From positions 1 through 64,000 of the IMG/VR virus record IMGVR_UViG_3300009314_000008: a DNA stretch of 64,000 bases. One strand, 5' to 3'. The notes under the pieces are model-generated. The model searched no databases, had not been told where the DNA came from, and saw only the letters and a list, made by a program, of their open reading frames with translations. Below, one piece after another: positions 6,815-63,550 of this stretch. Both the position numbers and the translations under genes were made by a program. Each line of letters opens with the position of its first letter. Within the stretch, counting starts at the first letter, position 1. This DNA is from a virus.

Positions 6815-7323
6815 ATAATTTTTCCCTTTTTAATCGTTTTCTTCATAAGCTTTCATACAAGCTTTTTGGTAAAGGCAAAGTCTTTATCGGAGACATTGAC
6901 CACTACCCATATCCTATTGAAGTAAAAGGCAATTGCTTTGGCGGACAAAACATTAAATATGTAGCACTCCCTGGCCAAATGTGCACATCCATCACAAAAA
7001 ATGGCAAAATTGTTGAAGACGAGATCACATACTTTTCTATCCACAGAAATATCCCCCTCTATAAAGTTATTTATTCGGATGGTTCAGAGATACTAACATC
7101 TCCAGTCAACACAATACTTATCATGTCTGATGATAAATGGGAAAGGGCTAATCTTATAGATATGAGTATTGTGGGCAAAGTGTCTCCTGGGTTCTCGGAT
7201 GGTAGCATTATATACAAAAAAGTAGTTGAAGTTATAAATACCCACAAAAAAGTAGACATGTATGATGTTTCACTTAAGAATGAAACCACTTTTCTTACCG
7301 ATTCCGACATATTTGTCTTTGAT
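6811..7323 (+). mobile_element. split intein C-part (171 aa, ends Phe-Asp; +1 residue Thr)
   Basis: Joining DFDGD to TVSVHVP restores the bacterial DFDGDQMAVHVP register exactly. Confidence 0.8.
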
Positions 7324-42157: not shown

Positions 42158-43165
42158 TTATTTAATTCGGATTCTCATCCTACAGATACCACGAGTGTCG
42201 CCAAATCCGTGACCGGTATATCTCCATGCACCCCAGATGAAATCATCCCATTCCCATTTGGAATCAGATTTATCGCTTCCAATTTTGATGTTTTTACCCA
42301 AATAAGATGGATCTACAAACAAATAGATATCTGTATAGAGCTCGCCGCTATCACCTTCTTTATCAAAATAGTAAATAGTTTCATCATCATTTTTAAGGTC
42401 TGCCTTTATGGTTGTAATGACAGGAATATCCAGCAGGACTTTCTGCGCTATACCGTTTTTAAAAGTCTCTCCAGCAAGATTACCAACTTCACCAGCATCA
42501 AATGCAAGCATATCATTCCATGCAGTCTGAGACATCAACCATTTAGCAGGCACAAGTCCTTGTCGTGTGATATAGGACATTAGGTTCGTAAGATCTTTTT
42601 TTCTACCACTATTTGTCCAATCGATAGTATCAGTATATACTGTGGTGTCTCCACCAACATGATTACCCGTAATTGTCAATATGGAAGCAACATTCTTGAT
42701 AAAGCCTAAATCTTGAGTTCGCCTTATTGCTTCGGCACCATTTTTCGTTACCATATCAACAAGATCGGAAGCAGAAGATGTTTCAAGTTCCAGCCATGGT
42801 TTTTTGTGCCGTTCTGTTTCAATTTTGCCGATCCATATCTTATATTTTTTTGTGTCTACGAAAATGGGTTGGGTATCACCTCTTATAGAGACCTCGGCAG
42901 CGGTTGCTCCGATTTCCTTCTTGTCAAGTACGTAAAATACATCAGCATCTTCGGTCTCTTGAATACCCGGATCCTTCGGTGACATGGTTTTATTGACCAA
43001 GAGTTTCTCAGAGAAAGCCTCTTCCCTTACATATCTCTTGACGTAATTTTCCAGAGAAGTTCCGAATTTCGTTATAAAATTATCTTTTGCCTCACGACCA
43101 TTCATCGCAAGGTCTTGCAGAATATCGTTCGCCTCTTTTATTAATTGTGTATTATCTATATTCAT
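42158..43165 (-). CDS. major capsid protein (HK97-fold, encapsulin-like)
   Basis: 335 aa; VREEAFSEKLL, KIETERHKKPWLEL, GLVPAKWLMS; position after protease, scaffolds and decoration gene. Confidence 0.75.
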   Translation of the reverse strand: MNIDNTQLIKEANDILQDLAMNGREAKDNFITKFGTSLENYVKRYVREEAFSEKLLVNKTMSPKDPGIQETEDADVFYVLDKKEIGATAAEVSIRGDTQPIFVDTKKYKIWIGKIETERHKKPWLELETSSASDLVDMVTKNGAEAIRRTQDLGFIKNVASILTITGNHVGGDTTVYTDTIDWTNSGRKKDLTNLMSYITRQGLVPAKWLMSQTAWNDMLAFDAGEVGNLAGETFKNGIAQKVLLDIPVITTIKADLKNDDETIYYFDKEGDSGELYTDIYLFVDPSYLGKNIKIGSDKSDSKWEWDDFIWGAWRYTGHGFGDTRGICRMRIRIK

Positions 43166-47602: not shown

Positions 47603-47983
47603 TTATATTCGGGGCGCCCTATAATATTTTATTAATGAATTAACATACTTTTCAGCATCTCTCTGTAATACACTGGGGAATGCTTTTGCTTTTAAATCAT
47701 CAATTTCAGATAAAACTTTTGCTGCCCCCCCAGATAGTCCTCCTGCACCTACATGACGCATAGTCTTCATTAAAGATTTTGGTCCTATCAGCGAAGATAG
47801 TGCCCCTATCCCAGCCCCTAATAGAACAGCAGGCAATCGTCCCTGCTCAATATTATCAAAAGCATGAGTCTTGTAGTCTTTTATTGCCTGACTTTTGGTA
47901 TATTGTGGATTAGTTGATATTTCGTCTTCGATGTCTGCAATATCTTTGACTATTGCTTCTTTAATTATTAATGGACGTTTCAT
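47603..47983 (-). CDS. leader-bearing cargo protein (MKRPLIIKEA) with Gly-rich hydrophobic segments
   Basis: AAGGAG RBS before the ATG at 47983. Confidence 0.65.
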   Translation of the reverse strand: MKRPLIIKEAIVKDIADIEDEISTNPQYTKSQAIKDYKTHAFDNIEQGRLPAVLLGAGIGALSSLIGPKSLMKTMRHVGAGGLSGGAAKVLSEIDDLKAKAFPSVLQRDAEKYVNSLIKYYRAPRI

Positions 47984-48027
47984 TATTTCTCCTTTAATTT
48001 GCTCTTTCCATAACTTCGTATAATTGG

Positions 48028-48123
48028 TCAATGATATCTTTCTTCTCTTTTGATCTTTGCAACAAATAGAGGTTGTAATATAGTGCTGATCACCGCCTCT
48101 TTAACTACAATGGGACATCTCAC
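48028..48123 (-). CDS. 31-aa leader-bearing mini ORF (MRCPIVVKEAVISTILQPLFVAKIKREERYH)
   Basis: GTG start; leader motif. Confidence 0.5.
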   Translation of the reverse strand: MRCPIVVKEAVISTILQPLFVAKIKREERYH

Positions 48124-48135
48124 TATTTCTATTTC

Positions 48136-48615
48136 CTATGTATCTCTCATATAGTATTTATAGTTTTTAGGATTTTTCTTTATCCCCGGTCTTTGATAAT
48201 GTCTCCTGAAATTTTCTATATCAGTTTTTTTATCAGCATATGCTCGCATTCTCTCCATTCTCCTTTTATTTGGAGTAAATGCTGCACCTAATCCTATTCC
48301 ACTTAATAGCGACGATCCCAATATAATAGGTAATTTGTATTTTCCTTTTATTTTTGACCCGGACATAAGACTACTAGATATTGTGCCACCCAGTCCTCCT
48401 CCTAATATCCCTCCAGCGACCTGCCTATTTTTTTTGTATACTTTAGGCAGATTCCTATATCTATTTATCCTTTTGTTCCTCAATTCATCAGATAATTCCA
48501 GATATTTATCGCTTGTTATTTCTTTTGCTTTTGTTGGGGTATACCCTCTATACTCACCTTTGTTGGATACTCTCATCAATGTAATGGCTTCTTTTACTAT
48601 TCTTGGACATTTCAT
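48136..48615 (-). CDS. leader-bearing cargo protein (MKCPRIVKEA), basic, two Gly-rich hydrophobic segments
   Basis: AAGGAG RBS; leader motif. Confidence 0.75.
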   Translation of the reverse strand: MKCPRIVKEAITLMRVSNKGEYRGYTPTKAKEITSDKYLELSDELRNKRINRYRNLPKVYKKNRQVAGGILGGGLGGTISSSLMSGSKIKGKYKLPIILGSSLLSGIGLGAAFTPNKRRMERMRAYADKKTDIENFRRHYQRPGIKKNPKNYKYYMRDT

Positions 48616-48695
48616 TTTATTCTCCTTTATTTTTTCAATCCAGTATATCGTCTTGGATCGTATATTCCTTATATTTAATCATATATTCTCCAAAA

Positions 48696-48827
48696 TTATT
48701 TTTTGACTGATCCTAAACCGTGTTGGATAAGAACATTGTTATTCATTGATTTTCTAACAGTCCTTTCCTGATGTGGCTGTAAGACGGTTTTAGTTGCTGC
48801 CATTTTTACAGATGCAGGACATTTCGT
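48696..48827 (-). pseudogene. leader plus SF2 helicase N-terminal remnant (ACG in place of ATG)
   Basis: (T)KCPASVKMA-ATKTVLQPHQERTV..VLIQHGLGSVKK*: Q-motif and broken Walker A. Confidence 0.55.
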
Positions 48828-48869
48828 CTTATTTTTCCTCTCGTTTTATATGCCTAATCATCTTAAAAC

Positions 48870-49139
48870 TTAACTAGATTTATCTTTTTTTAATGTTTGT
48901 GCTCGTCTCCAACCTGACATATATCCAAGATGATAACCTATTGAACCAGGTATCGTTAGTAGCCCAGCGTAATTTTTAAATTTCAGTCGTTCCGGATTTT
49001 CTTTTCTGCTGATAGCTCCTTCCCTAAATCCCTTTTTCTTACCTTCTCCATGACCTATCAAAGAAGGTGTTCCAAATAACGACAGATCGATGGCAGGACC
49101 TACGAGAACGGCCATTTTAACTATTTGTGGACATTTCAT
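48870..49139 (-). CDS. leader-bearing small cargo protein (MKCPQIVKMA)
   Basis: AAGGAG RBS; leader motif. Confidence 0.75.
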   Translation of the reverse strand: MKCPQIVKMAVLVGPAIDLSLFGTPSLIGHGEGKKKGFREGAISRKENPERLKFKNYAGLLTIPGSIGYHLGYMSGWRRAQTLKKDKSS

Positions 49140-49153
49140 CTTATTTCTCCTTT

Positions 49154-49654
49154 CTAAACTCCAGACACAACGTAGGGCTTACCAACTAAGGGTTGTTTAC
49201 CTAACACTATGTGTGCAGGATATTTTTTATTCTTAATTATATTATGTTTTATCTTTATACCTTTTGGTTTTATTGCTTTTAACTTCTTGTAGCCAAACCT
49301 TCCTCCAACTCCGATTGCAGCACCACCTATAGTTCCTTTGACAACATTTCCACCGCTTATGCCCGATGATATTCCACCGACAGATCCACCAACAATACCT
49401 GCTTTTGTATATGGATTTTTCCATATATGTTTAGCGATGGGTTTAAATGCTTTTAATGCGGCAACTATTCCCGCTTCCTTCAGTACTATTGGGCATGCCA
49501 ACTTAATCCCATTATCGGTTTTTCTCTTAGTTATTGCTGGTGCATATCTTGCCCGGGAATTAGTTATTGTTGGCGTTTTCATCACAACAGATTGTCCGGC
49601 CTTTAATGCTTTACTATACAATAGACCCTTATCATAATTTATCATATTTACCAT
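49154..49654 (-). CDS. basic protein with internal leader (KLACPIVLKEA) and glycine-zipper segments
   Basis: GIVGGSVGGISSG and GTIGGAAIGVGG. Confidence 0.7.
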   Translation of the reverse strand: MVNMINYDKGLLYSKALKAGQSVVMKTPTITNSRARYAPAITKRKTDNGIKLACPIVLKEAGIVAALKAFKPIAKHIWKNPYTKAGIVGGSVGGISSGISGGNVVKGTIGGAAIGVGGRFGYKKLKAIKPKGIKIKHNIIKNKKYPAHIVLGKQPLVGKPYVVSGV

Positions 49655-50346
49655 CCTATTAGTTTATATTTAAACATCAGTCCAACCGTTGTTGTATTCC
49701 CCTTTAATCCAATTCCATATCTTTCATCAAAGATGATATCTATGCCTACAAAACCATCTAATCTCTGTTTATTATTATTAACTTCTGGATTATAATCATA
49801 TTGGGTCTCCCCTACGAAGAATATCTGTCCTTTATCAACGGTTTTAATATATTTTCTTTCCCAATTGAGCCTCACATTTTTTATCTGATATCTCAATTTA
49901 TCAAAGATATACATTACTCCATCTTTATCTAGATTTACATCAATATCTATCCACTCATGAATATCAAATTGCAGAGTATCCCCTTCGGCTGTAAAGAGTT
50001 TTCGCACTTTTATTGCATTATCGCCACTATAATCTAATGTGTGGGAAGCAGCATTAGCCACCATGAGAGTATCATAAATAGTTTCTCCATCTTCTGTGAC
50101 AATAATTGATATTGTATCCTTGATAATCTTGGGATTAGTAAATAGCGAATCTGCTATCGATTTCCAATTATTCGCCTGATGAGTAACCGCACTTATACTC
50201 TCCGTCAAGGAATCCACCTTGCTATCCATAAACACAAGGTCTTCCTCTTGCCTAACGATTGTATCGTTTACACCATTTCGATAGGCAAAGTGATAAATGC
50301 TGCCAGTTAGCACTACTATAATAAGCACGATTATCTTAACATCCAT
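49648..50346 (-). CDS. membrane-anchored coiled-coil protein with beta-rich C-terminus (spanin-like candidate)
   Basis: N-terminal TM helix, coiled coil, C-terminal amphipathic strands ending in W. Confidence 0.45.
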   Translation of the reverse strand: MDVKIIVLIIVVLTGSIYHFAYRNGVNDTIVRQEEDLVFMDSKVDSLTESISAVTHQANNWKSIADSLFTNPKIIKDTISIIVTEDGETIYDTLMVANAASHTLDYSGDNAIKVRKLFTAEGDTLQFDIHEWIDIDVNLDKDGVMYIFDKLRYQIKNVRLNWERKYIKTVDKGQIFFVGETQYDYNPEVNNNKQRLDGFVGIDIIFDERYGIGLKGNTTTVGLMFKYKLIGW

Positions 50347-50417
50347 TACTTCTCCTTTCTTTTTTGAGCCATCCTCCGGAAGACTTTCGCCAAATTATAG
50401 CGCCTTGTCTTTGGTGG

Positions 50418-51299
50418 TCAAGTAGGTCCACCAAAGTTTGCTCCAGAACACACACCTTCCGTACCTCGACTTTTAATGGATTTATTTGCTGATTGTATCC
50501 ACCTTTTGGTTGCTTCCTTTAATACCCATGGACATAAAGCCTTCTTTTCTATAAGTAAATGCATAGATTTGCCCCGCGCCATCTTCAATATATTGGGATA
50601 CGCTAATTTCTTAAACCAATCCGTTTTTGACACATCATCAAATGCTCTATTGATTGTTTTAGCAATTTCCTCATTGCCTCCTTTGTCGGGATGCACTTTC
50701 CTCATCGTTGCCCAATAAGCTTGTTTTACCTGACTTTTTGAGTTAACTCCTTTCATCTTTAATCCGAAAGTACTTAAATTCTTTTTTATGGTAGCCTTTG
50801 GAATGTTCGGCGACCCTGAGTATTGTTGATATGCACGCCTGAAACCATCATATGATGCGCCCCGCAATTTTGCGTGATTGTACGGGATAAAAGATCCTGC
50901 CAACATCCCTAATCGTATACCCACACCCACAGATTTTTTCAGTTCATTTTTATTTCGTCGTGTTCTATTAGAATAAAATTGTTTAAATGTCGCTGATGGA
51001 TTCTTTTTTTTATACCTTCCCCATTGGTTTTTAAGAGTACCAGCATATGATAGCCCACCCCCTACTGCGCTACCTCCTCCTATTCTAATGGCCATTTGCC
51101 TCATAACCTCACTTTGTAGTGAAGCCTTTTTTGGAAGCCCCTTTCTCTTAGTTTTAGCAAATTCCCTGATTTTTTCTTTGGGCATTTTCTCGTATATCTG
51201 CCTAGCCGGACCATGTAATGCAGAGACTGGTATTTCGCCCTTTTTGGCTGCATAGACAAGTCCCATTAATTTTTGTTGGTTCTGACTGACACTGGGCAC
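50418..51299 (-). CDS. multidomain cargo protein with a DnaJ-type J-domain; TGA probably premature (frame continues to 50346)
   Basis: GTG start with AGGAG; N-terminal PSVSQNQQKLMG..TKRKGLPKK module; KQAYWATMRKVHPDKGG; internal KLAYPNILKMA and LCPWVLKEA. Confidence 0.7.
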   Translation of the reverse strand: MPSVSQNQQKLMGLVYAAKKGEIPVSALHGPARQIYEKMPKEKIREFAKTKRKGLPKKASLQSEVMRQMAIRIGGGSAVGGGLSYAGTLKNQWGRYKKKNPSATFKQFYSNRTRRNKNELKKSVGVGIRLGMLAGSFIPYNHAKLRGASYDGFRRAYQQYSGSPNIPKATIKKNLSTFGLKMKGVNSKSQVKQAYWATMRKVHPDKGGNEEIAKTINRAFDDVSKTDWFKKLAYPNILKMARGKSMHLLIEKKALCPWVLKEATKRWIQSANKSIKSRGTEGVCSGANFGGPT

Positions 51300-51300
51300 G

Positions 51301-52017
51301 TTATTCTCCTGCATAGAATAATGGATTTATTCCAGCTTCAACTAATACTGTTATTTTACCCGGATTAGACGCACCGCTGACTACTTGTATTTCAATGTCT
51401 GATTTACTCTCAACTATTATTGGTTCTTCTAAATCTATTTCTGCCACTCCATTCAGGAGGGACACAGATAATTCCCGTTTAAATACTTTCCCAAAAGGTC
51501 TTACATTCAAAGACATAAGCGAACTCCCATCATCTGCACCCGCTTCTGACAGAATAATCTTTTTAATGAAGATCCTTTTCTTATTGGGCACTGTATAGAG
51601 AGCCATCTCACTCTTATTTTTTCCGGTTTCTATCATACCTCTAATGTTGTTATCATTAGGTATTCCGCCTGTCGGAGCAGATTCGGTACCGATATATATG
51701 TCGCCAGCATTATTGGTGTCTCCTATATTCTCTATACTAAACACCCTTCTCCAAGAATTATCTTCTCCAATTTTTACCCCGGTTTGCCCCGAAGATGTAA
51801 CCTCTACCTCTTGATAAACATAATTAGCATCTACCCCTGTCACTTTATAATCCTGATCATCTCCGTTATCAGAGCTGGACAAATATAATGTTTCTGATAC
51901 AGAACCATAAATATATTCCATATTATGTGGCCAAACAAGTTGATTTACATCTGTTGTCAGATTCCCAGCATATCCTTTTATTTTTATAGGTTTCATACCC
52001 GCGAATACTTTGCTCAT
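51301..52017 (-). CDS. beta-rich putative virion protein
   Basis: SSSDNGD, GVDANY, WRRVF, MALYTVP motifs; downstream of the portal gene. Confidence 0.5.
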   Translation of the reverse strand: MSKVFAGMKPIKIKGYAGNLTTDVNQLVWPHNMEYIYGSVSETLYLSSSDNGDDQDYKVTGVDANYVYQEVEVTSSGQTGVKIGEDNSWRRVFSIENIGDTNNAGDIYIGTESAPTGGIPNDNNIRGMIETGKNKSEMALYTVPNKKRIFIKKIILSEAGADDGSSLMSLNVRPFGKVFKRELSVSLLNGVAEIDLEEPIIVESKSDIEIQVVSGASNPGKITVLVEAGINPLFYAGE

Positions 52018-52026
52018 TTTTTCTCC

Positions 52027-54795
52027 TTACTTATCTAAATCCATATTTGCTATTATTTTTTTATATAATGTGGGATTTATGTATCGAAGTTGCTTTAGCA
52101 TTTCTACCCTGTCGGTTTCATTATAACTTTCCTGAATCTGTAGAGCCATCTCCTTGGCAACATCGTCTTCCCCCGTTTTAATCAAGGTGTTGTCCTTTTC
52201 AATTTTCATGAATTGATCTAGATTGTCGGATATCATCTGCTTAAACTCATCGGGGAACTTTTGAACTTCCTTTACAAACTTGCCGAATTCTGGTGTTCCT
52301 TCGAGTTTAATCATCCTGGATGCATAGGCCGCGGCTTGTTGCTTAATGAACATTCGGCTTTCCAGTTCGGTTTCTACATCTTTGGCGATATCTGGACGGT
52401 GAGCCTCAATCTCCTCAACTATATCAGATATTTCATTGTCGTCTGCATTGGCTAATCTATCTGCATAGCCCATTGTGGCCATAGCATCCGCAGTTTCTTT
52501 AACTTTAGCGAACCTCTCCGAAGATTCCTGCATTAATTGCTGTTTAAAATATTCTCTCTCGTCCTGATTTAATCTATTATAGGTTGTAGCAGACAAATTT
52601 ATACTCTGATCTTCTGCTCTTTCTTCGTCCATTCTTTTAATACGTTCTTTCTGCAAGTTTGGATCCATTGTGACCGTTTTCTCTATTTGTTCTTCATCCT
52701 TTTTCTTCTTATATATATTTTCCAGTTGCTTATTGCGTTCTTCTTCGCTTAATTGGGACAATTCCTGTTTAGTCTGGGGATCAAGATTGTCGTTAATGGC
52801 CGACATTTCCTGTTCTATAGCAATTTCTTGAAGACATTTCTTTCTGTCATCGTACTTCATGCCGATCAATTCCAGTTGTTTAGTTTTTGGCAATTTTTTA
52901 TAAATCTCCATCAATTGACGGTATTCTTCGGCCATCTGTCTCTTATAATTAACCTCATCTCCCTTGAGTCCCATGGCTTCCATCTGATTCAATTCCAATT
53001 TCATTGATCGTTTTGCATCTCTATACTGCTGATCAGATTGTATTTTGAGACTTTCCTTCATATGTTCTAAAGAACCATCCATCTCATTAATCCGCCGTTT
53101 ATTCTGAACATCCAATTGATAATCCAACAACTTTTTCTTGGATGCAATATCCATTTTCATCAATTTCTTATGTTTATCAATAGCGGCCTCCATTTTATCG
53201 GATTCAATGGCGGCTATAGATAACTGATCTTTCAGGGCTTCTCGACGTTCAGTTTCTTTTATTTTCTTCTGTCCAGATAACAATACTTCTTGGAATTCAA
53301 CTTCACCCTGGGCTTCGAGGCGTTTCTGCATTTTTTTGAAATAGATTCTATCCTGTTTAGTGGCTTCTATTTTTGATCTTTGTGCTCGGAGATCAACACC
53401 AAACCGACTATAATATAATTCCGGAGATATATCTCCGTTCACCATACCCTTTTCGAGAAAAGTTGACTCCGCAAGGGCCTCGACCAACCTGGGCATTTCC
53501 AAAGTCAATTCGACCTTATCTTTTACATTCTGCGATGAGTTTATTTTCTCGGCTATAAAATCTAATAATTCCTGGACTAACATTCCGAATTGTTTAAATG
53601 TATTTTCGAGAATAATCGCTGATACATTTTGTCGTGACCATGTTACTCCACCGAATATAAACTCAATAGGTACACCTATTGTGGCCAATATGTCCGACAT
53701 GTTCTCGCGCAATTCTCTTCCGAGCACGAGAAGTTTGCCGGCTCCCCAAAAGTCTTTACTGCCCATTTCAATAGGCATCACCATTACATGTTTATTATCT
53801 TTTTTCCATTTTTTATATTGTGAGAGAACGCTCTGTCGCCAAGTCAACGAATTAATAGTTTGAGTCCTTGGTAGATGACCTCCAGATTCACCTCTCCAAA
53901 TAGGATAAAGCATCCGGAACGGAACCATCAATTCTTCGGCAACATTAGCGTTTGCTTGGACATACTTCATTCTTGTATAGAGATCTTGGAATGCCATTAC
54001 CATGGGTGGAATTGGCATCCCTTGAATATTCATTGTCGGAGCCTCAAAGATAAATAGTTTGCTGGGATTGATGACTATCCTGCGATTTTTCAATGCCGCT
54101 CTTATATATATCTGAGGCGTTGTACAAAGAATATAATGATCACCCCTGCGTATCAGATTACGCATTTCTTTATCAATATATAATTTATATTGTTTTGTGT
54201 CAGTTATTTTATTATAAACTGCTTCAATATTGTTAGGTGACCATACTGCTATAGACATTCTTTTTAAATTTGAACTATCTTTTCTATCTCTCATCTTAAA
54301 GGATGCATTTTTCCCATAGGCAGAACACTTTTTGTTGCGGCATTTATATTGAATCGATCCTTCTCCCGAACTATCCCATTTATATTCTGGGTCTCCTGTA
54401 TGTGTGAGATCTTTTAACAAATACGTATCTCCACAACTTTCACACACAATAACCTTATCAATAGCATACATCGGAAAAACAGCACTTATCCCATATATAT
54501 CATAATCACGACATGTCTTCACTATTTTTTCTCTTAATTTAATCACCCTGATCATCTTTTTGGCTCTATCCTCAAGTTCTGGATTATTACTTCTGATTTT
54601 AATATCCTGGATGGCAAATCTTGCCTTCTTGAGTATAGCCGTCCCAATCGCTGTATGGGTAAAGAAAAACTCCGCATAGCGATAATAGGTCTTCGCTCTA
54701 ACGGGGACAACTATTCTGTCCATGTTCAGGTTGAACACCAAATTCTTGATTCTGCTTGTATTATAGCTGCCTTCAGTAACACTATCTAATGACAT
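52027..54795 (-). CDS. portal protein with Zn-ribbon insert and long helical C-terminal extension
   Basis: Synteny terminase-X-portal-protease; VPFRMLYP, IGVPIEFIFGGVTWS..ILEN; CESC..CRNKKC. Confidence 0.7.
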   Translation of the reverse strand: MSLDSVTEGSYNTSRIKNLVFNLNMDRIVVPVRAKTYYRYAEFFFTHTAIGTAILKKARFAIQDIKIRSNNPELEDRAKKMIRVIKLREKIVKTCRDYDIYGISAVFPMYAIDKVIVCESCGDTYLLKDLTHTGDPEYKWDSSGEGSIQYKCRNKKCSAYGKNASFKMRDRKDSSNLKRMSIAVWSPNNIEAVYNKITDTKQYKLYIDKEMRNLIRRGDHYILCTTPQIYIRAALKNRRIVINPSKLFIFEAPTMNIQGMPIPPMVMAFQDLYTRMKYVQANANVAEELMVPFRMLYPIWRGESGGHLPRTQTINSLTWRQSVLSQYKKWKKDNKHVMVMPIEMGSKDFWGAGKLLVLGRELRENMSDILATIGVPIEFIFGGVTWSRQNVSAIILENTFKQFGMLVQELLDFIAEKINSSQNVKDKVELTLEMPRLVEALAESTFLEKGMVNGDISPELYYSRFGVDLRAQRSKIEATKQDRIYFKKMQKRLEAQGEVEFQEVLLSGQKKIKETERREALKDQLSIAAIESDKMEAAIDKHKKLMKMDIASKKKLLDYQLDVQNKRRINEMDGSLEHMKESLKIQSDQQYRDAKRSMKLELNQMEAMGLKGDEVNYKRQMAEEYRQLMEIYKKLPKTKQLELIGMKYDDRKKCLQEIAIEQEMSAINDNLDPQTKQELSQLSEEERNKQLENIYKKKKDEEQIEKTVTMDPNLQKERIKRMDEERAEDQSINLSATTYNRLNQDEREYFKQQLMQESSERFAKVKETADAMATMGYADRLANADDNEISDIVEEIEAHRPDIAKDVETELESRMFIKQQAAAYASRMIKLEGTPEFGKFVKEVQKFPDEFKQMISDNLDQFMKIEKDNTLIKTGEDDVAKEMALQIQESYNETDRVEMLKQLRYINPTLYKKIIANMDLDK

Positions 54796-54852
54796 TACCT
54801 ATCTCACCTTGCTTTTGCCGCCGAAAATATCATCCGCTTTCTTTAATATCCT

Positions 54853-56199
54853 TTACTTTTTACGCTTTTCATTAATATAGATTGCCAGATCAGATTTGAA
54901 GTCATGTTCTTTGTCCATCTTATCTTGATCTTCTACCACTTTTGCTCCAGCTAACATTCCAGTTTGAACCGCTTTGCTAATAGACTCTGAATTCAATGGA
55001 GGGGTATAATTTTTACCCGCAGATATCATCTGGTTAATATTTCCAGAATCCATTGTGCCGGTTATGTGGTGCTTTTTCAGTGTCTGCGCGAGGGCGTATG
55101 GGGCTGTAACCAATACTGGATTCAAATTAGTTACAGTCTCATAGATGTCATGATACTCAGATGGAGGTATTTCCTGCAGTCCGGGGAATCGATTAGGAAG
55201 CGATTTCTCCAATTTCCTAGTTCGGATTTTCTTTGTCACATCATTGATGATATCAACGCCTTTGGTTGCAGCTATTTGGGCACCAACTATTGCGGCCAAG
55301 TATGCTAATGGCTTTTCCTGGAAAAATATTTTCGCGGCAGTGTTGACTCCTGCATATTTTTCTAACCCTTCTTGCAATACGCTGGCTATAATAAATTCAT
55401 GCTGGAGATACTTATCAATCATGGCTGCCCTTTTCTCGCCACCCTCTTTCTGCAACATATTCATCATATTTAGATGGGCGATCTCTCGCTTGATAATCTC
55501 ATCGCTATATCTTAAAACTTCATGAGCAGACTTCGCCAGTTCATTATCCGTTAATTCAACGGGGTCAGTATTGGTATAATCTGGAACATTGAAATCCACT
55601 TGATCAATATAGCCTTCGGTCTTTAAATCGTCTAATAATCCAGTAAAATACTTTTTCAGTTCCTCTTCATTATTCTTGCCCCAAGACTCATATAGCGTTC
55701 TGTAAATATCATTAGCAGATTCTCCTGCCTGCAACAGGGCAATAATGGTGTTCTTTATATGGGCAAATATATTATCTCTTTTATTTACAAGAGACAATAA
55801 GTCGTCAGCATTCTCCTCGGCAGCATCAGCTATTTTCACAATATTATGGATTGGATTTATTTTAGGGCTTGGCTCATTGGCTACACTACCCAGCAGTTCG
55901 GATGCCGTTTTCATCCTTTTACCCTCAATCACTTTTGCCTTTTTCTCTACTAATGGTCCAAGTTGAGTATAGTCTGCCTTTTCAAACTTAAATGTCAGTG
56001 TCCCATTTCTATCTTTTTCTCTGGCGAATTTAATATGGTTCATCCGGGCCCCTACATTTTCTGCCTGGACGGGATTTAACCCATAATCAATCGCTACTTT
56101 TCGGAGAGCATCAGTTAGGGAAATCTGATTATCCTCAGCAACATCTACCCCTGCTTTAGCCACTCGCTCAACAAAATGTATATTGTTTCCCGGGTTCAC
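54853..56199 (-). CDS. KxA-rich internal head or prohead protein
   Basis: KVA, KTA, KIA, KSA, KRA, KYA motifs; LNPVQAENVGARMN. Confidence 0.55.
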   Translation of the reverse strand: MNPGNNIHFVERVAKAGVDVAEDNQISLTDALRKVAIDYGLNPVQAENVGARMNHIKFAREKDRNGTLTFKFEKADYTQLGPLVEKKAKVIEGKRMKTASELLGSVANEPSPKINPIHNIVKIADAAEENADDLLSLVNKRDNIFAHIKNTIIALLQAGESANDIYRTLYESWGKNNEEELKKYFTGLLDDLKTEGYIDQVDFNVPDYTNTDPVELTDNELAKSAHEVLRYSDEIIKREIAHLNMMNMLQKEGGEKRAAMIDKYLQHEFIIASVLQEGLEKYAGVNTAAKIFFQEKPLAYLAAIVGAQIAATKGVDIINDVTKKIRTRKLEKSLPNRFPGLQEIPPSEYHDIYETVTNLNPVLVTAPYALAQTLKKHHITGTMDSGNINQMISAGKNYTPPLNSESISKAVQTGMLAGAKVVEDQDKMDKEHDFKSDLAIYINEKRKK

Positions 56200-56210
56200 G
56201 TCTCCCCCTC

Positions 56211-56369
56211 TTATTTTTTGTTTTCTTCGGCTTCAGTGGTTTCTTGTTCTTTTTTTGCTTCTTCTTTCAAGATGGGGATAATTTGATTAATCTCACCCTT
56301 AGCTATCTTTTCTATCGCATCATCATATCCTTTTTTTACAATTACTTCCATGAAAATATCTTCTTTCAT
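56211..56369 (-). CDS. small acidic protein (52 aa, MKEDIFMEV..GYDDAIEKIA)
   Basis: GGAGG RBS; KxA motif; not in ORF track. Confidence 0.6.
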   Translation of the reverse strand: MKEDIFMEVIVKKGYDDAIEKIAKGEINQIIPILKEEAKKEQETTEAEENKK

Positions 56370-56424
56370 TCTTTCCTCCATTATTTAATCTTTACTTTTA
56401 ATTGACCATTGTTTTTTTGTCAAT

Positions 56425-58044
56425 TTATTTTTTTACTCTATATTCTAATTCGTCAAAATGGTATTTCTTCACTAATCTCAATATAACCAAATTCTGGAAA
56501 AAGTCATCTGTGCCTGACTTCCCATATCTGATTTTTCTTTTTCCAGTATCGTGATATCGATAGACGTTTGTCAAGTCTTTTGCATATTCTGAGGTCTCCC
56601 CAGGATATTTTGCAAATTTGTATTCACCTTTTCTCACAATATCGTCTATTAATCCAGTCATTACCGTTGATCTCGCCATTACCCATTTCTCGAATTCTGG
56701 ATAATATGCCACCTTCTCAGCCAACTCTCCTACATATTCAAATTCCATCGTCCTCTTAAAACCAAGTATTTCTATTATCCGGATATTTTCTTTGTGCCCA
56801 GCACCATAATCCATTCCGAGAATCAATACATTAAAGTGGTTTACCCAATAGACAACATCGTTAATTATATCATCTGGAGATCCATCTTCTCCCTTTCCAT
56901 AATATCTTCTGACGAAATTTATATTAATCTTGCGCGACCCAGGATCGTATGATCCTATCGTGAGCATGGTATAGGACTTTATTTTCGACAATTTTTTCCG
57001 CGGGTCATCTTCTACAGCCCAATCCAATGCCGCAAAAGAATACTCCTTCATTTTTTTAGTAATTTCAGAAGGATCTTTTACGTATTCCCTATCGCTATCG
57101 CATAAATATACTACCCTCTGCAATGTTATAGGATGTATATTGTCTGAAAATGATAACCCTAGAACTTCATTATGGAAATCAACCTCATCTTTTTTATTAT
57201 AATCGTATAAAATTGTATCCCAATCTGAAGCAAAGGGTGCTTCGGGGGGGATCATCAACTCGTTAATTGAAAATCCCTCGAAAGGTCTTCCGGGATGCGC
57301 CTCTACCCATTCTCCCCACCATGTGCTAATTCTCTTATGACATTTTTCGCAGATAATACCCTTAAGACCCATATTCTTTATGCCAAGCCCGACATTCCAA
57401 TGGCCGCATGCCCTACATTTAATCGCCCATTCACATCCTGTTGAATCATCGAATGTCGTTTGGATTCTATTCTCCGGTTGCATCGGCGTTCCCGTCTTAA
57501 GCATATATTTATATTTAGACCTTTTCAGCGCAAACTCAACAATACTAGCGTGCTGTTCAGGAGTATCTTGCATCTCGTCCTCAATATAGCAATCACCGAT
57601 AATTCCCCGAGCAGATAGTGGCGACACATAAATATTAGCTAAGAGTATTCTTGAGCCGGTCAAGTAGGATTTGTTTTTTACTTGTCTTTCGTTTAAACGA
57701 GGGTCGTAATAAATAACATCCGTGACCACAGAATCCCGGTTAATCCCCTTCAGAATGTCTGTTGAAAACCGACTCACCTGGGCATCGGTAGGTAAGGTTA
57801 TAATAGTATTAAAATATTTATGTTCAATCGCGAATCCGGTAGCAAGAATTGCGGCATTTGTTGATTTGGCTACTTTACGCGAACATTTTAGAATCACCCG
57901 GCGTTGAACTTGAGGAGATTCAAGGGTAAATCGAGAAGTATTAATTATAGGTATCCAAAAGGGTAAATATTTGAAAGAGAGGGCATCTCCATCAAGTTTA
58001 AACCATGCTTGGTATAAATCGCTCCGAGTTATTGCTTTATTCAT
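56425..58044 (-). CDS. terL: terminase large subunit
   Basis: ILKCSRKVAKST (Walker A-like), YIEDEMQD (Walker B), TGTP (motif III), CxxC pairs, FHNEVLGL, AALDW nuclease Asp, GTDD. Confidence 0.88.
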   Translation of the reverse strand: MNKAITRSDLYQAWFKLDGDALSFKYLPFWIPIINTSRFTLESPQVQRRVILKCSRKVAKSTNAAILATGFAIEHKYFNTIITLPTDAQVSRFSTDILKGINRDSVVTDVIYYDPRLNERQVKNKSYLTGSRILLANIYVSPLSARGIIGDCYIEDEMQDTPEQHASIVEFALKRSKYKYMLKTGTPMQPENRIQTTFDDSTGCEWAIKCRACGHWNVGLGIKNMGLKGIICEKCHKRISTWWGEWVEAHPGRPFEGFSINELMIPPEAPFASDWDTILYDYNKKDEVDFHNEVLGLSFSDNIHPITLQRVVYLCDSDREYVKDPSEITKKMKEYSFAALDWAVEDDPRKKLSKIKSYTMLTIGSYDPGSRKININFVRRYYGKGEDGSPDDIINDVVYWVNHFNVLILGMDYGAGHKENIRIIEILGFKRTMEFEYVGELAEKVAYYPEFEKWVMARSTVMTGLIDDIVRKGEYKFAKYPGETSEYAKDLTNVYRYHDTGKRKIRYGKSGTDDFFQNLVILRLVKKYHFDELEYRVKK

Positions 58045-58058
58045 TAAATATTTCTTAC

Positions 58059-58310
58059 TTACGGTTGTTTAATCCATTTCCCCATTCTCTTATAATCTGC
58101 ATAACCGCCAGCTCCTGCACCTAACAAACTTCCTCCCATAAATGCACCTATTGTAGACAAAGGATTGTATTTTTTTTGTTTACCTTTTTTAATCCTTTTA
58201 TTTTGGGATGAGCTATTTAGCATAGATGCTCCTATACCACCACCCAACATACCAATACCCGTCCTTAATCCCGGTACATAGGCTTCCTTAATTATCTCTG
58301 GACATTTCAT
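58059..58310 (-). CDS. leader-bearing glycine-zipper small protein (MKCPEIIKEA)
   Basis: GIGMLGGGIGASML and GAFMGGSLLGAGAGG. Confidence 0.75.
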   Translation of the reverse strand: MKCPEIIKEAYVPGLRTGIGMLGGGIGASMLNSSSQNKRIKKGKQKKYNPLSTIGAFMGGSLLGAGAGGYADYKRMGKWIKQP

Positions 58311-58600
58311 TTCATTCTCCTCTTTATTATAGATATCAAATCGCTTGCATCTCTTTTTAATTTCTTAACCATCTTTATCTGCCTAGCCTTTTCAAATTTC
58401 TTTGCCTGTCTCATGTAGTTAACCTGATAAGGGATTGCCTTGACTTGTAGTTTTATTGATCTGACAGGGTAGTATCTTCTATATTTAGAAAGGTCGTTAA
58501 TAAAATTATGAGAGAATATTGCTTTAGTCATTGCTTTGGTAGACGCTCTCCCTAACAATGTTGAAGTTAAGGCTTCTTTAATTATCCCTGGACATCTCAC
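58307..58600 (-). CDS. leader-bearing basic small protein (MRCPGIIKEA)
   Basis: GTGA overlap with the upstream gene; leader motif. Confidence 0.75.
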   Translation of the reverse strand: MRCPGIIKEALTSTLLGRASTKAMTKAIFSHNFINDLSKYRRYYPVRSIKLQVKAIPYQVNYMRQAKKFEKARQIKMVKKLKRDASDLISIIKRRMK

Positions 58601-60444
58601 AACAAATCCTCCCCATAAATTTTTAACTTTTTATATAGTATTTTCTTTATCTTTGGCATATTTAATGGAATCTTATCTTTCATTTTATTTAATGTCTTCA
58701 ATCCAAAAGCACTTGCTTCCGCTTCTGATAAATACTCGTTCATAGCAGTAGGCTTCTTCCAATATTTCTGGTTATATGTTTGTTTCTTAAGAATATCCAA
58801 TAATCCTTTTTTGCTCTTCACAGCATGCCCCAGTTCGTGAGACAACACTGCTGCCGGCTCATTTTTTCTTGGAAGCATAGAGACGATCTTCCTGACAGCA
58901 ACATTTTTCACTTTAGGAATAGATATAGATAAATCATTTCCTCTACCTTTGAGAAATTGCCCGCCACGCAGCAATCTAATATAATCTCTTACCCCAATAT
59001 CTGAGTTGACTCCCCCATATTCTATATTGAGCATTCTCTTAAGAGTGGGATTGATCTTTTTAAGTGGGATGAAATGCCTCTCTATAGGAATCTTGTGCGC
59101 CTTTATTTCTCGAAGTAAAGGTCTTAATTTAAGTATAGACCTTAGGGAAGACTTTTTTTGTAAAATGCTGGGGCAATTCATTGTTTTTCCCACTTTAAAA
59201 AGTTTTTGTTTATTTAGAGGACTTCCGGTTCTACCCTTCATAGTCCATTCCTTGAATTGCTCTACGGTCATCGCCGTGATCGGTCCACATTTCCATCCCT
59301 TCTCATAATTAGCGAGATATGTTTTTCTAGCCTCATCTTCAGTGAGTGCCCCGAGGATACACTTGTGTTCATCGAATTTACCGTTCTTGTCTACTTGATC
59401 AATTACATACACTATCTGACTTTCTGGATGACTTCCTATGAACACATCAATTTTGTCCCCATCTTTCCCATCCTGTGCATTAGAGATGTATCCATAATCA
59501 TATTTCATCTTTATTGACCACGATTTACCATCTGGGTCAGTTCCGGATCTCGTTGATCCCTTTGGGTTCTCCAATTTAATAGTCAGTCCATTCCACTTGA
59601 ATGACCCTTTTTTGTAGTTCTCGGCTTTTATTTGGGCATCTGATGGGTTAATGTTGGTATCTTTTCGAGCCCTATTTATATCTCCGGTCATTGTTGCTAT
59701 TTTAATATTATTGGGCATTCTGTCATTTAACGCCTCCCTCATTGCTCTGTATGAATCTTTTTTAATGTTACGTTTCATGTCCAAGTTTGTAGGGAATGCC
59801 TTATAGTTAGTAATATCAAAGTCTATTAAAGTGTTTCCTATTGTGTTTTGAGCGGTAGTATCTCTAAGATGAGGAAACCTTTTTTTAATATTCTTATAGT
59901 CCGACTTGTTTATTATATTTGCATTAATTATTTTATGAACTTTTTCTCTTGCCTTGTTTATAGAAATTATTCTTTTTTGCCATCTAATTTTTTCTGCTAC
60001 TGTCCCCTCTCTTGGATACTCATTAGGGACCATATTTTTTTTTATTATTGCCGCTTTATCAGAAATTTTTCTCCCCTTAATGTATTCATAATATCCAATC
60101 CCTTTATTTCTCTTTACCATTTTCGCTACAGGAATACCCTTTTTGTGCATTAACTTCCTCGCTTTATTCCATACCTTATGCTCCATTGCCTGAGCTTTAT
60201 ATATTCCTATAATATCGCTTGCAGATTTTCTGTCTATTAAAGGTATTTTTCTAACAGCTTTTCCAATACCTTCTGTGAATACGAGGTCGGCGATCCTGAA
60301 AGCTCCTCTACCTAATGGCTTTATCGTCCTGTCTTTATACCCAGCTTCCGCCAGTCTTTTAAGCGACTCTCTTCCTAATTTCCCAGACCTCACCATCTTA
60401 ACCCATCTTGGAGAAGCTCTCTTCAGTATTACAGGACAATTCAT
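58597..60444 (-). CDS. polyvalent cargo protein: kinase-like, inorganic pyrophosphatase-like and HExxH metallopeptidase domains
   Basis: LGRGAF..AVRK..RDTTAQN..IDFD; ENPKGSTRSG..DYGYI..DGDKIDVFIG..FDEHK; SHELGH..EAEAS; leaders MNCPVILKRA and internal MNCPSILQKKS. Confidence 0.78.
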   Translation of the reverse strand: MNCPVILKRASPRWVKMVRSGKLGRESLKRLAEAGYKDRTIKPLGRGAFRIADLVFTEGIGKAVRKIPLIDRKSASDIIGIYKAQAMEHKVWNKARKLMHKKGIPVAKMVKRNKGIGYYEYIKGRKISDKAAIIKKNMVPNEYPREGTVAEKIRWQKRIISINKAREKVHKIINANIINKSDYKNIKKRFPHLRDTTAQNTIGNTLIDFDITNYKAFPTNLDMKRNIKKDSYRAMREALNDRMPNNIKIATMTGDINRARKDTNINPSDAQIKAENYKKGSFKWNGLTIKLENPKGSTRSGTDPDGKSWSIKMKYDYGYISNAQDGKDGDKIDVFIGSHPESQIVYVIDQVDKNGKFDEHKCILGALTEDEARKTYLANYEKGWKCGPITAMTVEQFKEWTMKGRTGSPLNKQKLFKVGKTMNCPSILQKKSSLRSILKLRPLLREIKAHKIPIERHFIPLKKINPTLKRMLNIEYGGVNSDIGVRDYIRLLRGGQFLKGRGNDLSISIPKVKNVAVRKIVSMLPRKNEPAAVLSHELGHAVKSKKGLLDILKKQTYNQKYWKKPTAMNEYLSEAEASAFGLKTLNKMKDKIPLNMPKIKKILYKKLKIYGEDLL

Positions 60445-60456
60445 TTAATACCTCTT

Positions 60457-61341
60457 TTAGTGGCGTTTTTTAAAATATTCAGATGCTTCGGGGTTACTTT
60501 TATAGAGTTGGAACCTGTATTTCCTTCTTAGGTATTTCATACGTAACTCATCTAATTTTCTTGGAGACTTAAATACATACTTCCTTGTCTTCGGGCTCCT
60601 CATCATGCGAAATCTTCTCGTGAGCGGACCCCTAATAAGTGCATTAAATGCTTTTCCTGAAACATCCGCCGCATTCGTGACGAGTCGTCCCGACACCGCT
60701 GTTTTCGGTATATAAGGTGCTCTCTCATATGCAAGTTTACTGAACCACCCTGAGTTTTTAATGGATGTCCATGCTCCCACCACTTCTTTCATAATATCCT
60801 CCGAACCACCTTTATCAGGGTGGCTTTTCATTGCTGCTGCTCTAAAAATCTTTTTTACCTGAGCCTTAGTCTTTACTGACGATTTATTAATGTTTAGCGT
60901 TTTAATTGCTTTATCTAAATTTCCGCTCTTTACCGCGAACCCACCTAAGTTTTTAAAGTATTCATAATATTTTTTATTTAAATCTTCCCACATTGCCCGG
61001 TTCATCCTTCCTCTTATGTTTTCTGCTGCTCCATTAAGCCCTCTTCTTATGTTTTCTGCTGCTTCATTAAGCCCTCTCATTCTTCTTTTATGCCGATACA
61101 CCGATGGTCCTATTGCCATCCCCACAAGAGCTCCCCCAATAGCTGTCCCTATTGCGGCATCTTTAAGATCCTTACCGGATTTCGTCTTTATGTATTGCCC
61201 AAAAGATAATCTGTTTTTTCTCCCACCCCGCACATACTTATTGTAGTTTCGGTGTCCTTGCCATAAACTTGCCCCACCGAGCATTCCACCCAATGTGCCG
61301 CAGGTGGCAGTAGTTCCAGCTATTGTCTTAAATGCTCCCAT
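60457..61341 (-). CDS. membrane-associated J-domain protein (paralog of 50418-51299)
   Basis: KKIFRAAAMKSHPDKGGSED..WFSKLA; two Gly-rich hydrophobic segments. Confidence 0.78.
   Translation of the reverse strand: MGAFKTIAGTTATCGTLGGMLGGASLWQGHRNYNKYVRGGRKNRLSFGQYIKTKSGKDLKDAAIGTAIGGALVGMAIGPSVYRHKRRMRGLNEAAENIRRGLNGAAENIRGRMNRAMWEDLNKKYYEYFKNLGGFAVKSGNLDKAIKTLNINKSSVKTKAQVKKIFRAAAMKSHPDKGGSEDIMKEVVGAWTSIKNSGWFSKLAYERAPYIPKTAVSGRLVTNAADVSGKAFNALIRGPLTRRFRMMRSPKTRKYVFKSPRKLDELRMKYLRRKYRFQLYKSNPEASEYFKKRH
61012..61077. repeat. 33-bp tandem duplication (RGLNxAAENIR x2)
   Basis: Two adjacent copies with one mismatch. Confidence 0.9.
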
Positions 61342-61429
61342 TATTTCTCCTTTTTCAATCTCTTTAAATCAACAGGCGGTAGATTGATACCACCGCCCAC
61401 CTACTGAAGGGGAAGGGTTCCTCAGTATT

Positions 61430-61552
61430 CTATTTAACAAACACCCATTCGATTACAACAGTGCCTGAACAGTTTAGATCACCATCTGGATGCCAATGCC
61501 ATAACCCTCTATCTTCAACATCGGCAATTTTCAATATTTTAGGACATTTCAT
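61430..61552 (-). CDS. 40-aa chimeric mini ORF (MKCPKILKIA..GTVVIEWVFVK)
   Basis: Leader fused to a homolog of the C-terminus of the 62915-63550 product. Confidence 0.5.
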   Translation of the reverse strand: MKCPKILKIADVEDRGLWHWHPDGDLNCSGTVVIEWVFVK

Positions 61553-61591
61553 TTGTTCGCCTACTTTAAATAATTTTTGTTCATTAATATG

Positions 61592-62659
61592 TTATCTTAT
61601 CTTCCTGATAATTCCTGAAATAAATTTTCTCGCCTTTATGGGCACTTTTTTATAGTTTTCTGCCTTAATCTGTGCTTCTGACGGATTAGCATTAGTTGCT
61701 TTGCGAGCACTGGCAATATCTGATAACATCCCGGAGAATTTTATCATAGCATTTTTTTTGATTTGATTCACTCCATTTTTATCTTTATTTTTTGCTTCTC
61801 TAATTCCAGCGGCAACCAAAGCCCCTCCTAATATAACGGAGGGTATTATTTTATTTTTGTTTCTGCTGAAATATCCAGGAAACGTTTTCTTATAGTTTTC
61901 AGTCGTACGCATTCCATTAGCAAACGCTTTATAAGTATCACGATAATGCTTGGATGGTCCTCTATCCATTGTATAAGTTTGGGGTCCTAGAATATCAAAG
62001 TCTACTAGCGTTCTATCAACAAGATTTCTATTCGTCATATCATATATTCTCGGATATTTTCTTTTTATTTTTCGCATGGTTTTAGCATCTATAGGTGATT
62101 TATTAAGAATCCTTAACATCCTTAATTTAGCATTCTTTACCCGAATTCTCCTAACTCTATCACCCTGCTTTCCATATTCGTCTAGTTTATTAAATAATTT
62201 TTTTGCTTTATTAGCAACGCTCCTACCTTTAACATGCTCATAATATCCTATTGGGCCATCTTGTTTTATCAATCGAGGAACCTTTATCTTCTTTTTTGAC
62301 AAATATTTTTGCACTTTATTCCATACAAAATGTTCCTTTGCTTGGCTATTATATGGCTCATGAATATAATATTTCGACACCCCCTCTATATTAGGTATTT
62401 TTCTAACAGCTTTACCCACCCTACTAGTAAATACCAAGTCAGAGACTCTTGTTCCTCCCACTCCAAGATGTTTTATTGTCCTATCTTTATATCCAGCATT
62501 TGCAAGAATTTTTAATGCCTTCTCACTTAATTTGCCTGACCTTATCATCTTGATCCATTTGGGAGACGAATACTTCTCTATTGCAGATATCTTAATTATT
62601 GTTGGAAGCATACTTATTCTCCTAATTCCCGATGTTTTTATGATACAAGGGCATTTCAT
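61592..62659 (-). CDS. leader-bearing kinase-like protein with truncated pyrophosphatase-like tail
   Basis: MKCPCIIKTS; LGVGG..AVRK..YDMTNRN..VDFD; ends NPSEAQIKAENYKK. Confidence 0.75.
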   Translation of the reverse strand: MKCPCIIKTSGIRRISMLPTIIKISAIEKYSSPKWIKMIRSGKLSEKALKILANAGYKDRTIKHLGVGGTRVSDLVFTSRVGKAVRKIPNIEGVSKYYIHEPYNSQAKEHFVWNKVQKYLSKKKIKVPRLIKQDGPIGYYEHVKGRSVANKAKKLFNKLDEYGKQGDRVRRIRVKNAKLRMLRILNKSPIDAKTMRKIKRKYPRIYDMTNRNLVDRTLVDFDILGPQTYTMDRGPSKHYRDTYKAFANGMRTTENYKKTFPGYFSRNKNKIIPSVILGGALVAAGIREAKNKDKNGVNQIKKNAMIKFSGMLSDIASARKATNANPSEAQIKAENYKKVPIKARKFISGIIRKIR

Positions 62660-62914: not shown

Positions 62915-63550
62915 CTATTCTTTAAGTAATACCCATTCTATCACAACTGTTCCAACATATTCCAATGCATCTTCACCACTAGCTGCCCATCCATCAGCGA
63001 CATTCAAGTATACTGTTTTATCACCACCTGTCTCAATCTCCAGGGGGTCTGCTAATGCCAATGTTTTCGTAGTATAAGTGCTATCACAATCTGTAGCGGT
63101 CTGGCCGGTTAAAATATTTTCAAACGCGGCTGTTCCGCCCAACACATTTACAACACCCGATGCTACCGTAGTTCCAATACCTACATCTGGGGTGTCTGCA
63201 GTAATATTCCCATCACTTTCATTCAAAGCAATATTCATATATGCGCCCTTGACAACTATTGCCCCCGTGGGGAAAGTATACAGTAACTGTCCCAAAGCCA
63301 AATCGGCTCCGCCAGGTATATCGGCAAAGTGGGCAGATGATATTGCAATTTCAGTTACATGGAATTTTGCGTCGCCATATTCTACTACGGAGGCTACACT
63401 ATCAGATTTTGTACCCACATTTTTAGTAGTGATCATGGTACTGTCCGTCTGCACCTTCCCGTAGAATCGATTAGTTGCAGACTTAAAGTCCTTCGCAAAT
63501 AGCGATGTCACCAACAACATCGCAAGCAAAATAATTACTAATTTCTTCAT
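62915..63550 (-). CDS. beta-rich protein with a Sec signal peptide
   Basis: MKKLVIILLAMLLVTSLFA-KDF. Confidence 0.7.
   Translation of the reverse strand: MKKLVIILLAMLLVTSLFAKDFKSATNRFYGKVQTDSTMITTKNVGTKSDSVASVVEYGDAKFHVTEIAISSAHFADIPGGADLALGQLLYTFPTGAIVVKGAYMNIALNESDGNITADTPDVGIGTTVASGVVNVLGGTAAFENILTGQTATDCDSTYTTKTLALADPLEIETGGDKTVYLNVADGWAASGEDALEYVGTVVIEWVLLKE

Follow-up and report, generated by a model that had tools for sequence, protein, structure and literature searches.

A phage polyvalent protein with kinase-like, pyrophosphatase-like and probable peptidase modules, each preceded by a copy of a shared leader peptide

Polyvalent proteins are regarded as the weapons that a phage delivers first, and how their modules are loaded and separated is poorly understood in nearly every case. 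Iyer, Burroughs, Anand, de Souza and Aravind predicted in 2017 that polyvalent proteins carrying an InPase domain are packaged and that peptidase domains process them (PMC5512222). A second point of comparison is phage T4, in which the internal proteins IPI-III and Alt carry a capsid targeting sequence that the prohead protease gp21 removes, and an N-terminal peptide of about 10 residues is all that these diverse head-encoded proteins share (PMC3012670). Here we describe a locus that can be set beside both systems, an open reading frame (ORF) of 615 amino acids (aa) at 58597-60444 on the minus strand of a 64,000-nucleotide (nt) stretch of viral DNA (positions 1 to 64,000 of IMG/VR record IMGVR_UViG_3300009314_000008), which we call the window. 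The product reads, in order, as a leader, a kinase-like domain, a decayed leader, an InPase domain, a third leader and a domain with an HELGH motif. The locus is a compact case of the problem, with three enzymes, three copies of the leader tag and relatives that reshuffle the same cassettes at that tag. Two further additions to the polyvalent repertoire come from it, a kinase-like family that is rare and a peptidase that is an orphan.

Through its InPase domain and its architecture, the 615-aa protein is a phage polyvalent protein in the published sense, and the preliminary description of this DNA, which had placed it in that class, agrees with Iyer et al. (PMC5512222). At least two unrelated enzyme domains lie in one polypeptide (kinase-like, InPase and HELGH), and one of them, InPase (PF18823), is a hallmark confined to polyvalent proteins of the phage type. 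Also in common are a multi-enzyme chain, a kinase that lacks its C-lobe but keeps its catalytic residues, a zinc metallopeptidase (a probable one in the 615-aa protein) and stand-alone cassettes nearby (PMC5512222). The 615-aa protein differs in its kinase, which is not of the described family PF18762, in its peptidase, which is not of PF18818, and in that a clade-specific decapeptide precedes each module; no such tag was found in the available portion of Iyer et al. (PMC5512222). Every feature listed in the preliminary description (a leader, kinase motifs, the segment MPNNIKIA, a pyrophosphatase-like domain, a leader at 59181 and HELGH) lies where it had been placed. Its three domain calls are borne out, the kinase-like and InPase calls firmly and the zincin call provisionally, the last resting on motifs, sub-threshold Pfam matches and a mediocre predicted model.

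The ORF is a single intact frame, and a Shine-Dalgarno-like AAGAGG precedes its ATG. It shares the orientation of the large terminase gene downstream (56425-58044, minus strand; Pfam GpA_ATPase; phrog_675, E 1e-40), from which two small leader genes separate it. The identical 615-aa product is recorded from three contigs. Logan contigs of the probable source run (X1) stop at 59236-59242, inside the InPase tail, and a 1289-nt JGI contig seemingly stops near the same place, as judged from its 214-aa product. Among the contigs of runs X2 and X3, contigs being all that was compared, none spans 59113-59249, and no second assembly bridges the join at 59236-59242. These contig ends could mark a coverage gap or a population branch point. 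We regard the join as sound because the piece downstream of the break opens with the InPase tail TMKGRTGSPLNKQKLFKVG and the window has no other intact InPase core, the core of the one paralogue (described below) being deleted.

The middle module matches InPase (PF18823) over residues 269-401 (59242-59640, minus strand) with an E-value of 1e-50 and 171.5 bits against a cut-off of 26.8, and from its sequence we assign it as a type-I-like pyrophosphatase. Two acidic motifs, DGDKID at residues 328-333 and FDEHK at 357-361, are conserved in the relatives aligned there (nine of 10 sequences). Going by the motifs of the E. coli pyrophosphatase, we take DGDxxD and FDEHK to be the metal site, which would then be intact. 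The work of Iyer et al. also underlies this assignment (PMC5512222). Of the InPase PHROGs matched, several bear annotations as virion structural or minor head proteins. Only one solved entry has an InPase domain, at the C-terminus of the portal protein of Pseudomonas phage Pa193 (PDB 9b41_L, residues 636-762, E 4e-27). In that portal, gp19, the InPase part is without density (residues 529-765; PMC11456595). The Pa193 protein is the closest solved relative of the module, and the domain belongs there to a virion protein that faces the capsid interior. It differs in being fused to the portal, whereas the InPase of the 615-aa protein sits in a free chain between the kinase-like and peptidase modules. 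The cassette closes with LFKVG (59188-59202, minus strand), its C-terminal K-x-G boundary (K417-V-G419), which takes the form KLFKV[GAS] in relatives.

In contrast to the InPase, the N-terminal module (residues 11-225; 59770-60414, minus strand) returned nothing in sequence searches of Pfam, PHROGs and the PDB, the last of these with a profile as well as with the single sequence. An exhaustive HMMER search of 1.84 billion sequences defined its family by 35 representatives, most of which stand alone and are 200-290 aa long. The module carries the kinase motifs LGRGA (44-48), VRK (64-66), DTTAQN (195-200) and DFD (208-210), and in an alignment of 25 family members G45, G47, K66 and D208 are invariant, with D195 and N200 conserved in at least 90%. 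AlphaFold2, run from the family alignment, produced a model (pLDDT 86, pTM 0.81) in which a kinase-like fold spans residues ~36-218, and the best Foldseek matches of this model are Rio2, CK2 and PRPK (E 2.6e-4, probability 0.96-1.0). VIA-align superimposes it on MST4 with Z 8.0 and a root-mean-square deviation of 4.0 Å over 138 aligned residues, and residues 3-153 of CDK2 align to model residues 37-215 with fitting motif order and spacing. In a search of 48,161 chains independent of Foldseek, ranks 1-19 were all kinases (Z 6.4-7.7). The Z values are moderate, and the part present runs from the N-lobe through the DFG position only. Because these fold matches combine with motif conservation, we accept the module as a protein-kinase-like phosphotransferase that lacks a C-lobe and keeps all catalytic residues. 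Among the best structural matches are the minimal atypical kinases Rio1, Rio2 and Bud32/PRPK, which are likewise small and built from an N-lobe, a hinge, a catalytic loop and a metal-binding Asp with a reduced C-lobe. The module differs from them in that a sequence relation is not detectable, in a helical insert at residues ~149-173 ahead of the catalytic loop and in a chain that stops soon after DFD. Truncated kinases of just this design are reported in phage polyvalent proteins by Iyer et al. (PMC5512222). Kinase-PolyVal (PF18762) itself has no match in the 615-aa protein (E<=1), in the 25 family members (E<=0.1) or in the whole genome (E<=1).

The C-terminal module (residues 432-615; 58600-59151, minus strand) is probably a zincin metallopeptidase of the gluzincin type, and this is the weakest of the three domain calls. 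Its HELGH motif (residues 536-540) is followed 34 residues downstream by EAEASAFG (574-581), a segment that resembles a helix of families M78 and M48 (E-x-x-A-[ND]-x-F-A) and may supply the third zinc ligand, a Glu. The only Pfam matches of the protein outside the InPase are to three zincin families, all over the HELGH region (residues 518-590) and all sub-threshold: M91 (E 9.4e-5; 23.3 bits against a cut-off of 25), M48 (0.029) and DUF6782 (0.19). The ESM Atlas model, a mediocre one (pLDDT 0.59), has M48, MA-like and Zn_peptidase clusters as neighbours at TM 0.50-0.57. Searches for sequence relatives of the module at near or longer lengths found none, nor did a PDB sequence search, and MPTase-PolyVal (PF18818) gave no match at E<=1.

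What ties these modules together is the leader, a 10-residue peptide with the consensus M-K/N-C/T-P-x-I-I-K-x-A. The pattern x-C-P-x-[IVLM]-[IVLM]-[KQR] has 12 sites in the window, and MKRPLIIKEA at 47980 brings the copies to 13. Most stand at ORF starts and some are internal. Nearly all lie within 47980-62656, clustered round the terminase, portal and capsid genes, with one outlier at the head of a 253-aa gene in the RNA polymerase (RNAP) operon. The window is the reverse strand of positions 14911-78910 of C1, a 134.6-kb contig in a metagenome-assembled genome (MAG) of 189 contigs and 2.76 Mb. C1 has 22 matches to a loose form of the motif (0.163 per kb), against 0.018 per kb in the other 188 contigs of the MAG, a nine-fold higher density and more than chance would give. 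The copies vary in synonymous codons, and it is thus the peptide that is conserved. Its payloads are kinase-like, InPase, J-domain and Gly-zipper domains, as well as domains without known identity, and it recurs in the related phage contigs L002, L003, L004, L005, L012 and L015, near their terminase. In the leaders of L002 and L003 the Cys is replaced by Thr, and cysteine chemistry is therefore not required.

In the 615-aa protein, leader 1 is MNCPVILKRA (residues 1-10; 60415-60444, minus strand), disordered in the AlphaFold2 model (pLDDT ~52). Leader 3 is MNCPSILQKK (residues 422-431; 59152-59181, minus strand), which begins at an in-frame internal ATG at 59181. Between them, MPNNIKIA (residues 243-250; 59695-59718, minus strand) is by alignment a decayed leader 2. 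Relatives have canonical leaders at this site (MKCPRNIVKIA in P0002, MNCPRMIVKMA in P0003, MKCPRAIIKTA in P0007 and MKCPGIIKEA in L004), and all of these stand at the same distance from the InPase core, seven residues ahead of a conserved DI..AR..TNTNPS run. K-x-A or K-x-S is kept in 12 of the 13 window copies, and seven of the 13 end in I/V/L-K-E-A, which resembles the L/I-x-E site of gp21. Thirteen copies of a short N-terminal peptide common to unrelated head-encoded proteins make for a likeness to the T4 system. The differences are that the leader has no sequence similarity to MKTYQEFIAE, that its invariant residues are K and A and not Glu, that the tag is also internal at domain borders and that it does not end in the site of an encoded S77 protease, the genome being without Peptidase_S77. 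A Glu-specific, T4-like I-K-E|A site was considered as a general rule and was dropped because K and A are the constant positions and the tags of the 615-aa protein (KRA, KIA and QKK) lack Glu.

The junctions show the internal leader copies to be real module borders. As the preliminary description had it, the protein is assembled from leader-delimited cassettes, and all three breaks coincide with leader copies. Each border holds the hydrophobic-K-x-A/G core of the tag, namely K8-R-A10, K248-I-A250 and K417-V-G419, and in the 615-aa protein, L004, L015 and P0001 the InPase cassette closes with KLFKV[GAS] and is followed by a leader. The same core was counted in 77 InPase proteins of the homologue search (P0009-P0120), chosen to exclude the clade of this phage. 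One K-x-[AG] peak stands at -26 relative to the AGNYKKG anchor, with 47 occurrences at -33 to -20 versus 14 expected (46 of the 77 proteins), and a second peak lies 15-20 residues past the FxxW motif. In the 615-aa protein, whose anchor reads AENYKKG, K248 falls at -26, the mode of the 77 proteins, and K417 at +16. K8 of the N-terminal leader is invariant throughout the kinase-like family, of which distant members start with ...ELEKIA.PRW. With K-x-[AG] peaks flanking unrelated InPases and K8 invariant, the clade decapeptide seems to elaborate on a hydrophobic-K-x-A border motif that is widespread. Distant stand-alone kinase-like members (P0127-P0154) start with aromatic-x-x-[EG]-[LF]-x-K-x-A-x-P-R-W, and the K-x-A mark is therefore older than the Cys-Pro leader.

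The cassettes recombine freely among relatives. P0122 is a leader and kinase alone, P0002 is a leader-InPase fused to a homologue of the protein at 4037-4798 of the window, P0003 joins leader, InPase and a J domain like that of the neighbouring gene at 60457-61341, P0005 and P0006 join leader, InPase and a lytic transglycosylase, and P0008 combines InPase with an HD domain. L004 has each cassette as a gene of its own, the stop codon of one overlapping the start codon of the next, and these genes are translationally coupled. Fusions at internal leaders are also kept across distinct phages, in a 304-aa protein of L003 and a 310-aa protein of L002.

We see about an even chance that the ORF encodes a three-enzyme cargo chain that is tag-loaded into the head and delivered with the DNA, its modules likely being separated at the K-x-A/G borders. 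The ORF would be made together with the head and packaging genes, and its N-terminal decapeptide, also found on about 12 other proteins of the phage, would load the chain into the procapsid. The chain would then enter the host with the DNA, and a phage protease would likely separate the modules at K8-R-A10, K248-I-A250 and K417-V-G419, in the head or once injected. The analysis establishes the domain identities, the tag and its conservation as a peptide, the module borders, the reshuffling of cassettes in relatives and the place of the gene in the head module, whereas packaging, cleavage, the cutting protease and all substrates are what we infer. If the tag were shown to load and cut cargo, the injected proteins of uncultured phages would become predictable from a short motif. 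Cutting into three enzymes in the head, as put forward in the preliminary description, is in our judgment a reasonable inference, with an uncleaved chain bearing fusion scars as a serious rival.

A number of observations weigh against the cargo-chain reading. The host is uncultured. Pfam and PHROGs searches of 16 head-module ORFs recognized no head protease, and Peptidase_S77 and S78 have no match in the genome (S77 at E<=1). The Lys at -26 could belong to an N-terminal helix of the InPase and not to a cut site. No curated threshold is reached by the zincin call, and a single-sequence AlphaFold2 model of the HELGH module failed (pLDDT 51). In favor of the reading, the predicted major capsid protein (42158-43165, minus strand) starts with MNIDNTQLIKEA, which contains the h-h-K-E-A core of the leader and would fit removal of a short propeptide at the leader motif. 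This likeness is suggestive only because LIKEA-type motifs outside leaders number three in the contig versus about 1.7 expected, and the capsid observation was made post hoc. Finally, and again to its detriment, both internal leaders are decayed (MPNNIKIA and ILQKKSS), as unselected fusion scars would be.

The last point leads directly to the rival that survives best, to which we give tentative but real credence: the three-domain chain, packaged or deployed in some other way, stays uncleaved, its internal leaders are relics of gene fusions in which loss of the stop codon between two adjoining leader-tagged genes brought the Met and tag of the second into the same frame, and only the N-terminal leader works. 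The internal copies still have their initiator Met (M243 and M422) yet are degenerate, MPNNIKIA having lost K-C and ILQKKSS having lost K-x-A, and L004, with its overlapping stop and start codons, displays the unfused state. Precedents for intact proteins also exist. In phage SPN3US most head proteins are uncut (42 of 53; PMC10052503), and polyvalent proteins of the N4 virion RNAP type travel at full length according to Iyer et al. (PMC5512222). Against an uncleaved chain, K-x-[AG] has been kept at the canonical -26 and +16 positions although the rest of the tag decayed, the internal-leader fusions of L003 and L002 are conserved between distinct phages, and one target common to all three modules is unlikely.

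We consider it unlikely that the C-terminal zinc peptidase cuts its own chain, whether in the head or following injection, as has been proposed for MPTase domains of polyvalent proteins, with the leader or K-x-A as recognition sites and other tagged proteins perhaps trimmed as well. Iyer et al. read a peptidase at the C-terminal end of such a chain as self-processing (PMC5512222), no serine-type head protease was found in the contig, and the peptidase module has its own leader. However, the HELGH domain does not match MPTase-PolyVal and is without relatives, whereas the leader system spans several phages. Nor does the 615-aa protein have a match in the partial relatives G001 and G002 (the capsid protein has none there either). 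A divergent head protease may also have escaped recognition, and the contig may be incomplete. A bolder version, on which we would place rather little weight, is that the orphan HELGH peptidase is a dedicated leader/K-x-A peptidase that travels with the cargo and releases all tagged modules, its own partners included. The decapeptide would in that case be a capsid address, a cut mark and a recombination joint for cassette swaps all at once, and sequence alone would then reveal which effectors such phages inject.

Improbable, and the weakest of the alternatives, is a non-virion set of late intracellular enzymes in which the decapeptide serves as a docking site for a chaperone/DnaK, a degradation signal or microhomology for cassette exchange: J-domain proteins (60457-61341 and 50418-51314) do occur among the leader genes, rearrangement remnants lie at 61430-61591 and the RNAP operon, on the opposite strand, includes one leader gene, but the gene of the 615-aa protein adjoins the terminase and portal genes and runs in their orientation, the InPase family is repeatedly tied to the virion and the portal, and the tag is like the T4 capsid targeting sequence in length, position and payload diversity (PMC3012670).

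The neighbourhood of the ORF contains further copies of its parts. A paralogue at 61592-62659 (minus strand) consists of tandem leaders (MKCPCIIKTS and MLPTIIKISA), an intact kinase-like domain that is 40% identical to that of the 615-aa protein, a Gly-zipper and the first ~26 residues of the InPase cassette, followed by a stop. The remnant beyond this stop (61430-61591, minus strand) holds the InPase tail NEQKLFKVGEQ, a leader (MKCPKILKIA) and a copy of the C-terminus of the ORF at 62915-63550 (GTVVIEWV). The InPase core is deleted between AENYKK and NEQKLFKVGEQ, and the whole of 61430-62659 looks like the scar of a cassette rearrangement. The J-domain proteins at 60457-61341 and 50418-51314 (both minus strand) are paralogous, with Gly-rich segments, an HPDKGG J-domain and a WF(S/K)KLAY end. 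The protein at 50418-51314 also contains a leader-like segment, LCPWVLKEA, in its interior, and several PHROGs without known function match its N-terminus. A 238-aa ORF at 51301-52017 (minus strand), a possible head-protease candidate, belongs to a widespread viral family without known function. Its product adjoins the putative portal and falls in a large virus-only family, phrog_8198, for which a fold is predicted with confidence (Atlas pTM 0.85).

C1 can be identified as a large contractile-tailed phage because it carries RNAP genes, a large terminase and sheath-like and capsid-like genes. The only link to a Cloacimonadota host is the binning of C1 with a Cloacimonadota MAG, whose contig C62 has a host-type rpoB with 96-98% identity to MAGs that bear the label Cloacimonadota (or, for one of them, Armatimonadota). 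A single marine metagenome study yielded DNA of the window, in four of its runs. Over 59700-59961 a contig from an RNA library is identical to the window, which is a weak hint of transcription that DNA carry-over might also explain. Searches of IMG/VR with the terminase, the capsid protein and P0123 as queries found no relatives, and a search for the capsid protein in 203 genomes of the order gave a single distant match.

The RNAP beta and beta' genes of the phage are split and lie at 797-9162 (Pfam Rpb2_6, E 7e-52). The preliminary description had suggested that the pyrophosphatase could assist a packaged RNAP, and this link fared unevenly. One observation is in its favor: two leader-tagged genes stand between RNAP beta and beta' in the relative L004 (positions 1285-3517; Ga0208769_1003598), one encoding 220 aa and the other an InPase, the latter ending in a second leader (LKCPEIIKVK) and then a stop. 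An InPase inside an RNAP operon would make a role in early transcription testable. On the other side, none of the RNAP subunits themselves carries a leader, and because of this a packaged RNAP is not evidenced. At the same site the window has only the homologous leader-tagged gene, which encodes a 253-aa protein (MECPSIIKVA; 4037-4798, plus strand) of the kind found behind InPase in P0002. An ORF at 5738-6814 (plus strand), between the two beta' pieces, contains a LAGLIDADG_3 endonuclease domain (E 1e-12), and L004 carries a different insertion at that place.

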